Assembly (NCBI RefSeq): GCF_003334305.1
Contig: NZ_QOWS01000024.1
Reading direction: 5' to 3' (one strand)
Source of the DNA: Escherichia coli
GTDB taxonomy: Bacteria; Pseudomonadota; Gammaproteobacteria; Enterobacterales; Enterobacteriaceae
DNA: 64,000 bases
The position numbers and the translations under genes were made by a program. Below are positions 27,974-33,684 of the stretch, in pieces (the first letter of the stretch is position 1; each line of letters starts with the position of its first letter). The notes beneath the pieces are model-generated. The model worked only from the letters and a program-made list of their open reading frames with translations. It did no database searches and had not been told where the DNA came from.

Positions 27974-28930
27974 TCACATCGCCGCTTCATTTTTCGCCCG
28001 TAGCTTCTTCGCCTGGCTTTCCAGTAGCAGGTAACAGATCAGCGCCAGCAGCAGCGGGATAAAGTAATACAGGACGCGATAAGCGAGTAGGGCGGCGATA
28101 ATTGTGCCTTTGGATGTATGCTCCCCAGCCAGTAGCGCGATAAACACCGCTTCCAGCACACCGATCCCCGCCGGAATATGCACGATGACGCCAGCAATAC
28201 TACTAACCAGTAACACGCCCAGTACAAAGAAATAGTTCACGCTTTGACCAAGTAACAGCCAGATAATCGCCCCCATTACCATCCAGTTAACGCTGGAAAT
28301 CAGCATCTGAGCGAGGGCGAATTTCCATGAAGGCAGCACCAGTTTTTGCCCTTTGATGGTCATATGGCGGTGCTTCGCGAAAGCGCAAAACCACAAATAA
28401 ACCGCGATAATCATCAGTAAGCCAATGCCGAGAATACGCAGCGTAGTTTGATCGACATACCAGTGATCCGGCAACTCCACCACGCCTGCGGTAAAGATAA
28501 TCCCTGCCAGTAAAATATAGCCCAGCCAGTTGGTGGTAATACTGAGCGAGAAAATCCGCGTAATAGTGCTGCCCGGTAACCCTAGTCGGGAGTACAAACG
28601 ATAGCGCATACCAATGCCGCCGACCCAGGTACTGAGCGTCAGGTTGAAGGCGTAGCAGATAAACGACACCAGCATCACCTGGCGCTTCGCCAGTTTGTGA
28701 CCGCAGTAAAAGCGGGCGAGCAGGTCATAGCAGCCGTAAATCAGATAGCTGACGACCACCAGCCCGACCGCACTAAGCAGCGCAACGCGATTGTAGTCGC
28801 GGATGACCTTCCAGACCTCTTCCCAGTCCACTTTTTTGGCGTAGACCACCAGCAACACAATCACCGCGATAAAAAACAGCCAGGTGAGGATCTTCTTTGC
28901 TAAGCGCCAGCGCGGGTGTGATTTACTCAT
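27974..28930 (-). CDS. ybhN: YbhN, inner-membrane protein (UPF0104 / LPG-synthase-TM-like)
   Basis: 318 aa polytopic ORF; last gene of ybhP-clsB-ybhN. Confidence 0.88.
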   Translation of the reverse strand: MSKSHPRWRLAKKILTWLFFIAVIVLLVVYAKKVDWEEVWKVIRDYNRVALLSAVGLVVVSYLIYGCYDLLARFYCGHKLAKRQVMLVSFICYAFNLTLSTWVGGIGMRYRLYSRLGLPGSTITRIFSLSITTNWLGYILLAGIIFTAGVVELPDHWYVDQTTLRILGIGLLMIIAVYLWFCAFAKHRHMTIKGQKLVLPSWKFALAQMLISSVNWMVMGAIIWLLLGQSVNYFFVLGVLLVSSIAGVIVHIPAGIGVLEAVFIALLAGEHTSKGTIIAALLAYRVLYYFIPLLLALICYLLLESQAKKLRAKNEAAM

Positions 28931-30171
28931 CAGGGTTTTACCCCCGTGTTTTCAGTTTCTACCCGATCCTGCGTTTCCATTGTCGGTTGTGCGGGCGGAT
29001 CAACCTGCGCCAGACGTGGTGTGTGTGCCGGAAGCCAGCCAACCAGCGCCGGGAAGTGGCGTAAAAAGTGGAACGCCAGCACGCTTTTGGTCAGGTTCCA
29101 CCAGGTGCGTTTCGGCAGCATGGTCTCATCGACCTGCTGACAATCTGCGGCAATAATGCCGTTCAGATTATCGCGCAGCGTCTGGTTAAAATGACGATCG
29201 TGGATGATGACATTTGCTTCGAGATTCAGTGACAAACTGAGCGGATCGAGATTACTGGACCCTACTGTCGCCCAGTGATCGTCCATCAATGCCACTTTGC
29301 CGTGGAGCGGGCGGCGGCGGTACTCAAATACCTGAACGCCGCCTTTAACCAGATAGTTATACAGCAAGCGCGCACCGACTCTGACAATCGGCATATCCGG
29401 TTCGCCCTGAATGATCAGTTTGATCCGCACCCCGCGCCGTGCCGCTTTACGCAAGGCGTGTAAAAATCGATAGCCGGGGAAGAAGTAGGCGTTGGCGATA
29501 ATGACTTCTCGCCGCGCCTGAGTGAGCATTTTCAGATAGTGACGTTCAATATCATCGCGATGTTCTTCGTTATCGCGCCAGACCAGCAATACCTGCGCTT
29601 CTCCCGGCTGGCGGTTCTCTTCCGCTTTGTGATGACGTCGCCACCAGCGTCGTGCCGCGCTCTGTCCAGGCAGGTTTTCCAGCTCAAACTGGAGAATATC
29701 TTCGACAATCGGCCCTTCAAGGCGTACCGCGTAATCCTGTTTAGCCTCTGGACCGTAGCTGGACATATGCTCGGCGGAGTAATTCAGCCCGCCAATAAAG
29801 GCGATACGCGCGTCGATCACCACAATTTTGCGATGCATCCGGCGAAACACATTGGTGCGCATACCAAAAAGGCGAGGGCGGGGATCGTAGTAGCGAAATA
29901 CCACGCCAGCTGCCGTCAGTTCATTGACAAACTCATCGCTGAGATCCGGCGAACCGTAGCCATCCAGCAAGACTTCCGCTTTAACCCCGCGTTGCGCTGC
30001 TGCCAGTAGTGCCGCATGCAGCTGTTTGCCGACGTCATCCTCAAACCAGATAAACGTTTCAAGAATGATGCGTTCTTGTGCCTCGCCAATCGCCTTAAAC
30101 ACCGCGGGATAATATTGCTCGCCGTTTTCCAGCAACTGGATCTTATTGCCTTCGCGCCAGCTACATTTCAT
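28930..30171 (-). CDS. clsB: ClsB, cardiolipin synthase B (phospholipase D family)
   Basis: 413 aa; two HxK-type PLD motifs (HRKIVVID..., HGKVALMDD...). Confidence 0.92.
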
Positions 30172-30929
30172 AAATGAATCTCCGCACTTAAAGGGGCATG
30201 ATCAGAAAGGTGTCGCCATGTCCGCAGCGGCAACGCGGTTGGCGCGCTGGCGCTGGCATTTTTGACGTAGATCCTGTCCAGTCGTAGTAGAGGAAATTGC
30301 ACCGGAAACGTGCGCGCCGGGCGTCCGTGGGCGCGGGTAAAAATCTCATCCAGTCCGGCCTGCACTTTTAACGGATGATTAGCTTTTTGCCGCCAGTCAT
30401 TGAAATCACCCGCCACCAATACCGGTTCGCCGTCCGGTAGCTCATTCACCCATTCGGCGAGCATCGCAAGCTGCGCCTGACGGTGCGCCTCACGCAGGCC
30501 CAGATGTACGCACATCACATGAATCGCTTTTCCGGTCATCGGTGGCACAATGCGGCAGTAGAGCACGCCGCGCTTTTCCGCACCATCGACCGAAACATCG
30601 CGATTCTCATAATGTTCAATGGGATAACGCGACAGTACGGCGTTGCCGTGATGCCCTTCCGGGTATACGGCATTGCGACCGTAGGCAAAATCGCTCCACA
30701 TCGTGTCGGCGAGAAACTCGTAGTGCGAGGTATCGGGCCAGTTTTCCACATGCAGCGGATGAACTTCGTGCGCGCCCATCACTTCCTGCAGGCAAACAAT
30801 ATCGGCGCTGACGGTACGCACCGCGTCGCGAAGTTCCGGCAAAATGAAGCGTCGGTTAAACGCGGTAAAACCTTTGTGAATGTTGATGGTGAGCACCTTG
30901 AACGAAAATTGTTGTGTTTGATCGGGCAT
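30168..30929 (-). CDS. ybhP: YbhP, endonuclease/exonuclease/phosphatase-family protein
   Basis: 253 aa; 4-bp overlap with clsB start. Confidence 0.88.
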
Positions 30930-31061
30930 AATTTTCCTGTCTTTGCCTCTTATCTCATTGAAATAGTGTAGTCGGCGTCACAAAAAGGTGCGGTCTTACG
31001 GAATTTTCCGTAAAGTTCGGTACTCTGAGTAAGTAGAGATAAATTCTTCAGGAGAGAAGCC

Positions 31062-31472
31062 ATGAAGTGGCAACAACGTGTTCGTGTCGCAACTGGTCTA
31101 AGTTGCTGGCAGATTATGTTGCATTTACTGGTAGTGGCGCTGCTGGTGGTGGGCTGGATGAGTAAGACTCTGGTTCACGTCGGCGTGGGATTATGCGCAC
31201 TGTATTGTGTCACGGTAGTGATGATGTTGGTGTTTCAGCGCCACCCCGAGCAACGCTGGCGTGAGGTGGCAGACGTGCTGGAAGAGCTGACCACGACCTG
31301 GTATTTTGGCGCAGCGCTGATTGTGCTGTGGCTGTTGTCCCGTGTACTGGAAAACAACTTTTTGCTGGCAATTGCAGGGCTGGCAATCCTTGCCGGCCCG
31401 GCGGTAGTTTCTTTGCTGGCGAAAGATAAGAAGTTACATCACCTTACGTCTAAACATCGCGTACGCCGCTGA
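31062..31472 (+). CDS. ybhQ: YbhQ, small inner-membrane protein
   Basis: 136 aa hydrophobic ORF; 3' end overlaps convergent ybhR. Confidence 0.8.
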
Positions 31473-32540
31473 CCCTGTCGTGGCCGTTATCACCAGTAGC
31501 GGCCACAAACTATTCCACACAATATCCAGACTCGCATCCTTCAAATAAATCTGCTTGGTAATGTCCGTAAAGTGGCGAATAGGGTTAATCCACGTCAGGT
31601 TTTGCAGCCATACTGGCATGTTTTCCACCGGAGAAACGTAACCGGAAAGGAGAATGGCGGGCATCATAAAAACAAACACGCCGATAAACGCCTGCTGTTG
31701 TGTCGAGCAGAGTGATGAAATCAACAGACCGAATCCCACCAGCGATAAACCGTAAATCACCATCGTAAAGTAGAACAGCGCCAGCGATCCGGCGAAGGGG
31801 ATTTGATACGCCCAGATACCAATCGCCAGCACAATGGTGGCCTGGAAGGTGGCGACAATTAACGCCGGTACGGCTTTGCCGATGAAGATCTGCCAGGTGG
31901 TGAGCGGCGAAACCAGTAGCTGATCGAGCGTACCTTGTTCACGTTCGCGGGCGACGGAAAGTGAAGTGACGATCATTACGCCGATAGTGGTGATCATGGC
32001 GATCAGCGACGGCACCACAAACCATTTGTAGTCAAGATTCGGGTTATACCAGTTGCGTACCACCAGCTCGCTGTTGTTAGGTTTCGGTTTTCCTTCCAGC
32101 AGCTCCTGCTGATAATTTTTGACGATCTGTTGCAGGTAGTTGGCGGCAATTTGCGCACTGTTGGAGTTACGCCCGTCGAGGATCAACTGCAACGGCGCGG
32201 TCTGGAAGGTATCCAGTTTGCGCGAGAAGTCAGCCGGGAAACGCACCAGTAGTAACGCCTTTTGTGTGTCGATGGTTGGGCGGATCTCCTGTGGGCTTTT
32301 CAGCAGCAGCACATGAGTAAAGGCGCTGGCGCGGGCAAAACGTTGGGTCAGCTCCACCGAATGCTCGCCGTTATCTTCATCGTAGATGGCGATGGTGGCG
32401 TTAGTCACTTCCAGCGTGGCGGCGAACGGGAACAGAATCACCTGAATAAGCACAGGTAAAATCAGAATCGCGCGGGTTTGCGGTTCGCGCAGCAGCGACT
32501 GCAACTCTTTGCGGATTAACGTCCATAAGCGATGAAACAT
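31434..32540 (-). CDS. ybhR: YbhR, ABC-2-type exporter permease
   Basis: 368 aa polytopic ORF. Confidence 0.9.

Positions 32541-33676: not shown

Positions 33677-33684
<8 letters not shown>
32551..33684 (-). CDS. ybhS: YbhS, ABC-2-type exporter permease
   Basis: 377 aa polytopic ORF, paralogous to YbhR. Confidence 0.9.

Follow-up and report, generated by a model that had tools for sequence, protein, structure and literature searches.

Conserved tail-to-tail coding overlap of ybhQ and ybhR in Escherichia coli and its relatives, with probable Rho-dependent transcript ends inside the partner gene

Convergent overlaps of at least 5 nt numbered 1,218 in a survey of 58 genomes, and about a third of them were in phase 123:321 (Lillo and Krakauer 2007, PMC2174442). 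Like the prokaryotic convergent overlapping pairs described there, in which genes on opposite strands share their 3′ ends and orthologous pairs occur in several species, ybhQ and ybhR of Escherichia coli meet tail to tail. The pair departs from the published pattern in two respects (PMC2174442): the modal convergent overlap is 4 bp whereas that of ybhQ–ybhR is 39 bp, and its length is fixed across more than 15 genera even as ybhR ends in any of the three stop codons.

A second comparison is with convergent excludons, as compiled by ExcludonFinder (PMC12288877), which ybhQ–ybhR resembles in having overlapping transcripts in most samples and RNase III products captured over both genes. In typical E. 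coli excludons the two genes are separated by a mean of 95 nt and only the untranslated regions overlap (PMC12288877), whereas here the coding sequences themselves overlap. Excludons are defined by a reciprocal effect on expression, which for ybhQ–ybhR would be a prediction. Another E. coli convergent pair, mscL–arfA, is present in the same excludon list, and its 3′ antisense RNA crosstalk is reported to be regulatory (PMC10070815), whereas ybhQ–ybhR is known from transcript mapping.

Rho-dependent termination followed by trimming of the 3′ ends back to a stem-loop was reportedly described by Dar and Sorek in 2018. The ybhQ–ybhR transcripts are similar to trimmed Rho-terminated RNAs (PMC7815308) in being sensitive to bicyclomycin on both strands, in carrying C-rich untranslated RNA and in having a hairpin without a U-tract at a 3′ end. 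They differ in that both Rho events fall inside the coding sequence of the partner gene, and in that the hairpin is formed from sense codons of the opposite gene.

We analysed a 64,000-nt stretch of the E. coli contig NZ_QOWS01000024.1 (the window). Here ybhQ (31062–31472, + strand; identified by open reading frame, RefSeq annotation and Pfam family PF11076) encodes an inner-membrane protein of 136 amino acids, and ybhR (31434–32540, − strand; identified by open reading frame, annotation and profiles) encodes an ABC-2 type permease of 368 amino acids. The latter is the last gene of the cecR(ybiH)–ybhGFSR exporter operon (PMC7190983). The original prediction, that the two genes share their last 39 bp, agrees with both the open-reading-frame list and the RefSeq coordinates: the common 3′ segment, with both stops included, occupies 31434–31472 on both strands and holds the last 12 codons and the stop of each gene. 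RefSeq/PGAP annotates the same overlap in strain H15 of E. coli, at 100% identity, and the overlap is the same in the MG1655 annotation (ybhQ, 824630–825040; ybhR, 825002–826108), in which coordinates exceed those of the window by 793568. Neither stop appears to lie elsewhere, as family profiles reach near both C-termini. The Pfam YbhQ match spans residues 1–132 of 136, and the ABC-2 permease profiles reach residue 365 of 368, so the YbhR share of the overlap is the end of the conserved fold.

The two genes are in exact antisense register (123:321), with codon position 1 of either gene opposite position 3 of its partner. The ybhR stop TAA is a ybhQ leucine codon, TTA, read from the other strand (31434–31436), and the ybhQ stop TGA is likewise a ybhR serine codon, TCA (31470–31472). 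Between them, CGC arginine codons in the YbhQ tail face GCG alanine codons in the last helix of YbhR. The 12 ybhQ codons in the overlap encode a basic cytoplasmic tail, and those of ybhR encode the end of the last membrane helix and a basic tail. In this phase an antisense stop is possible only opposite TTA, CTA or TCA, and an open antisense stretch of 12 codons is therefore unremarkable on its own. The conservation of the 39-bp overlap, between species and within E. coli, is far beyond chance.

To describe that conservation, we used a scan with one genome per species and analysed the best 80 of 173 loci. An overlap of exactly 39 bp is kept in 71 of these 80 loci, all from other species and spanning more than 15 genera, which include Escherichia, Salmonella, Citrobacter, Enterobacter, Leclercia, Kluyvera, Yokenella, Superficieibacter, Phytobacter, Trabulsiella, Siccibacter, Mangrovibacter and Cedecea. 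The length is unchanged although YbhQ itself ranges from 135 to 139 amino acids. The position of the ybhR stop is fixed, yet all three stop codons occur there (read on the + strand as TTA, CTA or TCA); ybhQ ends in TGA, except in two loci with TAG. Three other loci are frameshifted, contain Ns or have a premature stop. In Escherichia albertii NBRC 107761 (L006, 529–576) ybhQ has a premature stop at codon 16, and both the overlap and ybhR are intact. In E. coli UTAK-1 (NZ_CP157165.1, 2035–4930), ybhR, ybhS and ybhF are annotated as frameshifted pseudogenes and ybhQ is intact and identical; the frameshifts reflect either loss of the exporter or assembly errors.

Five of the 80 loci lack the overlap, with gaps of 0, 10, 11, 33 and 34 nt between the genes and a different YbhQ tail. 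In a tree of YbhR these loci occupy three separate positions nested among overlapping ones. This placement rules out the non-overlapping state as ancestral in the Enterobacteriaceae; the overlap is ancestral for this set, and on at least three occasions the genes have come apart without either being lost. The separated cases include Pluralibacter gergoviae and strain 18056. We considered whether the genes had been separated by tandem duplication and rejected this for the five loci, because the DNA of the ybhQ tail has no significant similarity to that of the ybhR tail. Homology to the overlapping relatives ends at the old ybhR stop, which favours insertion or replacement instead. In two separated loci the short new spacer has a small GC-rich palindrome of its own: GGCGGC-ATAATC-GCCGCC in one (L042, 3403–3436) and CACCGGC-GCTA-GCCGGTG, which spans the ybhQ stop, in the other (L061, 3395–3420). 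These may be replacement terminators or stabilizing hairpins.

YbhQ is a small family; the members found here come from enteric bacteria and reduced symbiont genomes. A large protein collection contains 817 homologues, but at 50% identity these collapse into only about 66 clusters, with many fragments among them, and the protein has no NCBIfam model. Across genera its identity is 59–98%. Beyond the Enterobacteriaceae, we found distant homologues in reduced genomes without ybhR (33–40% identity; 121–128 amino acids, with shorter tails) or on short contigs. Divergent copies occur in the strongly reduced genomes AP012554.1 (1.15 Mb; L086) and CP145881.1 (0.59 Mb; L088) and at a further locus (L085). 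There, moa genes are near ybhQ in L085 and L086, ybhL (Bax1-I) adjoins it in L085 and L088, and none of the ybhPON or ybhGFSR genes is beside it in L085, L086 or L088. These neighbourhoods hint at a housekeeping role for YbhQ that would be independent of the exporter.

The overlap is also stable within E. coli. A 1.8-kb stretch of the window is present in 5,424 of 5,426 complete genomes, and the 39-mer of the overlap is identical in 5,343 of the 5,426. The adjoining ybhQ-only 39-mer of this strain is identical in only 10 genomes, by a crude comparison in that megablast requires an exact seed of 28 nt. Between species, the mean column entropy of the overlap (0.48 in 72 sequences) is close to that of ybhR-only sequence, and the ybhQ-only sequence just upstream reaches 0.94. 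Constraint is uneven along the 39 bp. In the five ybhR codons nearest the stop, third positions vary freely and the opposing YbhQ residues vary too. The doubly constrained part is 31452–31472 on both strands, which contains ybhR codons 6–12 from the C-terminus (S-A-A-Y-A-M-F) opposite the end of the YbhQ tail, K-H-R-V-R-R-stop, which across species is K-H-R-[VI]-R-[RH]-stop. The normalized synonymous diversity of these seven ybhR codons is 0.29, compared with 0.61 in the remainder of the gene; a value this low occurs in only 3 of 268 seven-codon windows (Mann–Whitney P = 0.017), a test that ignores phylogenetic relatedness and whose modest P value is, as for our other synonymous-site comparisons, indicative only.

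The original prediction also held that transcription of each gene necessarily runs on into its partner. With no DNA separating ybhQ from ybhR, neither transcription unit can end before entering the partner gene, and the claim is upheld by this geometry together with a mapped RNA end, regions of Rho-dependent termination, an excludon listing and double-stranded RNA. The excludon listing comes from ExcludonFinder, which places ybhQ–ybhR among 165 convergent excludons found in at least 50% of 58 MG1655 RNA-seq samples (PMC12288877). Double-stranded RNA produced by RNase III and captured by p19 (PMC7373196, Table S1b) is abundant over both genes. For ybhQ the counts are 29, 33, 293, 205, 281 and 342 in sets E, S, E-R1, E-R2, S-R1 and S-R2, respectively, and the corresponding values are 24, 26, 322, 230, 304 and 354 for ybhR and 13, 11, 27, 30, 16 and 20 for ybhS. 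The excess of the two overlapping genes over ybhS is thus about 2-fold in the SOLiD sets (E and S) and about 10-fold in the four Illumina repeats. As the values for ybhQ and ybhR are nearly equal in every set, the reads probably lie in the shared region, although the counts are per gene. Wild-type total RNA also contains antisense reads over both genes: over ybhR they exceed the sense reads (24.0 compared with 14.2 RPM; Huang et al. 2020, PMC7373196), and over ybhQ they amount to 5.0 RPM compared with 111 RPM for sense (PMC7373196).

Together, the RNase III products and the ExcludonFinder listing indicate that the two RNAs overlap and pair. The in vivo transcript overlap that characterizes a convergent excludon is thus found for this pair from published data alone. 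We suppose that the ybhQ and ybhR RNAs form duplexes that are cut by RNase III.

In the neighbouring operons, the short same-strand overlaps of ybhN with clsB (1 bp, 28930), of clsB with ybhP (4 bp, 30168–30171) and of ybhS with ybhF (8 bp, 33677–33684) are ordinary, in the style of translational coupling. The gene ybhN (27974–28930, − strand) yields about 430–1,255 RPM of p19-captured RNase III double-stranded RNA in the four repeat sets, far more than its neighbours (PMC7373196, Table S1b), and a Rho region lies antisense to it at MG1655 position 821989 (+) (PMC7815308). These two observations suggest a strong antisense transcript at ybhN.

How transcription ends on the two strands can be read largely from published maps. 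A consensus scan found no canonical intrinsic terminator after either stop; a + strand match at 31390–31407 was discarded, as it lies inside ybhQ, upstream of its stop. No Rfam family matched 30800–31900 at E ≤ 1, and beyond the ybhR stop the − strand RNA is predicted to be no more stably folded than shuffled sequences (z = −0.16). Rho regions, by contrast with these intrinsic signals, are reported on both strands (PMC7815308, Supplementary file 2): one at MG1655 825182 (+), which is window position 31614 and antisense to ybhR (score, 3.95; P = 5 × 10−7), and one at 824929 (−), which is window position 31361 and antisense to ybhQ (score, 3.85; P = 2 × 10−7). They were called from DirectRNA-seq with and without bicyclomycin in 800-nt windows, so that their positions are approximate (PMC7815308). 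On both strands, read-through rises under bicyclomycin in these published data (PMC7815308), as expected of Rho-dependent termination.

The RNA in these regions has features of a Rho substrate. After the ybhQ stop, the + strand transcript is untranslated and rut-like over 31473–31550 (33% C and 14% G). On the − strand, read-through of ybhGFSR past the ybhR stop produces RNA antisense to ybhQ (31433 to 31361, up to the reported Rho region), which is untranslated and has a C/G ratio of 1.3–1.7. We propose that the ybhGFSR transcript passes the ybhR stop into antisense ybhQ, where Rho would end it on this untranslated C-rich RNA. With transcripts extending in both directions, the two RNAs would share a complementary stretch of some 150 nt or more.

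Term-seq places the 3′ end of the ybhQ mRNA at window position 31512 on the + strand (MG1655 825080), an end that is classed as ‘primary ybhQ / antisense ybhR’ and entered twice in the published list (Adams et al. 2021, PMC7815308, Supplementary file 1). This is 40 nt past the ybhQ stop, inside ybhR, and 6 nt past an 11-bp hairpin, GTGGCCGTTAT-CACCA-GTAGCGGCCAC (31480–31506, + strand), in the ybhQ 3′ untranslated region. A second Term-seq end lies 60 nt into ybhQ, at 31122 (+) (MG1655 824690; PMC7815308), where the Rho score is 0.6 and the score for intrinsic termination is 4.9; it may represent premature termination or processing inside the gene.

The hairpin is written in the ybhR codons W-P-L-L-V-I-T-A-T, and its RNA has a predicted folding energy of −24.4 kcal/mol (z = −3.3). 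It is identical in 5,316 of 5,426 E. coli genomes. Across 45 species 94% of the cells in its stem are paired, with compensatory changes at two pairs, a covariation that amounts to only two or three independent events. Synonymous diversity in ybhR codons 13–24, which contain the hairpin arms, is 0.43, as low as in 8 of 263 windows when kinship is ignored. The hairpin is also kept where the genes no longer overlap, there farther from the ybhQ stop, so that its conservation could partly reflect the YbhR codons or another role.

The ybhQ mRNA thus runs 40 nt into ybhR and has its stable 3′ end just past this conserved GC-rich hairpin. We hypothesize that Rho would terminate ybhQ transcripts about 100 nt beyond it, with their ends being trimmed back to, or paused at, the stem. 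The most likely role of the hairpin is therefore that of a block to 3′-to-5′ exonucleases, or of a weak pause, for Rho-terminated transcripts. It does not have the features of a bidirectional intrinsic terminator, as it lacks a U-tract and on the − strand sits within translated ybhR. Alternatively, instead of stopping exonucleases, it might itself end ybhQ transcription as a non-canonical, factor-assisted intrinsic terminator. The mapped 3′ end 6 nt after the stem, the strength of the 11-bp helix and the conservation of the stem, with some compensatory change and depressed synonymous variation, are all consistent with such a terminator. However, the stem is followed by AAACUAUUCC, without a U-tract, and was not called by the consensus scan; some 100 nt farther downstream the same strand has a Rho-dependent region; and the 3′ ends of Rho-terminated RNAs are usually trimmed to structures, according to the authors of the Term-seq study (PMC7815308). 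On balance, we regard a factor-assisted terminator as rather unlikely, and we retain Rho-dependent termination with a trimmed or paused end as the preferred account of the ybhQ 3′ end.

Whether the meeting of the two transcripts has regulatory consequences is a separate matter, and one on which the ybhQ promoter bears. A σE-like promoter motif, GGAATTT-N17-TCTGA (31000–31028, + strand), precedes the ybhQ start by 34–62 nt and recurs in 68 of the 80 loci (best 80 of 173). Overproduction of σE induces ybhQ 5-fold (PMC2731931), and the ybhQ mRNA is probably driven by this σE-type promoter. An inverted repeat, ACGGAA-TT-TTCCGT (30998–31011), encloses the −35 element and could be a regulator site. 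The conserved promoter-like motif together with the 5-fold induction implies that there are conditions under which read-through from ybhQ into ybhR would rise.

Antisense interference between ybhQ and ybhGFSR, as raised in the original prediction, is thus plausible. In its strongest form, ybhQ and the CecR-controlled ybhGFSR operon would be a functional convergent excludon, in which collision of RNA polymerases, RNase III cleavage of the duplex or both make their expression mutually exclusive, each represses the other and the overlap is kept by selection. The membership of the pair in the core list of convergent excludons, the enrichment of double-stranded RNA over both genes, the excess of antisense over sense reads across ybhR, the σE-like promoter with its induction and the retention of the overlap in more than 15 genera all speak for such an arrangement. 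However, sense RNA of ybhQ and ybhR is not raised in rnc-14 or rnc-38 mutants (PMC7373196), and we found no reciprocal expression data for the pair in the literature. Selection for the overlap is also difficult to reconcile with the three lineages that independently separated the genes and kept both, or with the distant ybhQ homologues that have no ybhR nearby and the persistence of ybhQ in symbionts; moreover, double coding constraint explains the retention of the overlap equally well. We therefore consider a functional excludon unlikely, and any mutual repression is probably weak.

A more specific proposal, which we consider very unlikely, is that the overlap and the hairpin form a selected module in which σE-driven transcription of ybhQ throttles the 3′ end of the ybhGFSR mRNA, and reciprocally. 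If true, such a module would couple envelope stress to exporter output, and the hairpin would be a coding sequence doubling as the terminator or stabilizer of the mRNA of the opposite gene. We instead suppose that double purifying selection makes the overlap hard to remove, and that this, more than any regulatory benefit, is the main reason for its persistence.

Finally, the idea that the overlap is an annotation artefact, with one frame stopping short of the 39 bp because the YbhQ tail is untranslated or ybhQ is no gene, is extremely improbable and already close to refuted: YbhQ has no known function or NCBIfam model and its five proximal overlap codons vary freely, but it is conserved in sequence and length across genera and survives in reduced symbiont genomes too, synonymous change in ybhR is depressed by the last six residues and stop of YbhQ, the YbhR C-terminus belongs to the ABC-2 permease profile, and the position of each stop is fixed mechanically by its reading frame.

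We are thus fairly confident that ybhQ and ybhR are both real genes, that their tail-to-tail overlap is genuine and ancestral, and that Rho ends their transcripts inside the partner gene on both strands. The arrangement is in itself ordinary and already known, from the annotation of the overlap and from the inclusion of the pair in a published list of excludons. Our additions are modest: the exact conservation of the overlap across more than 15 genera, its three resolutions, the seven doubly constrained codons and the link between the hairpin and the ybhQ 3′ end.

Outside the locus the significance is slight, as the overlap is present in every reference annotation and the pair already figures in a catalogue of convergent excludons. 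When genes are recoded or deleted, a change to the end of ybhQ also alters YbhR, and vice versa. The three naturally un-overlapped lineages are ready controls for the question of whether excludons formed by coding sequence regulate. The pair is a clean and deeply conserved case of two genes that appear to manage without an intergenic terminator, through Rho on both strands and a hairpin made from the codons of the partner.
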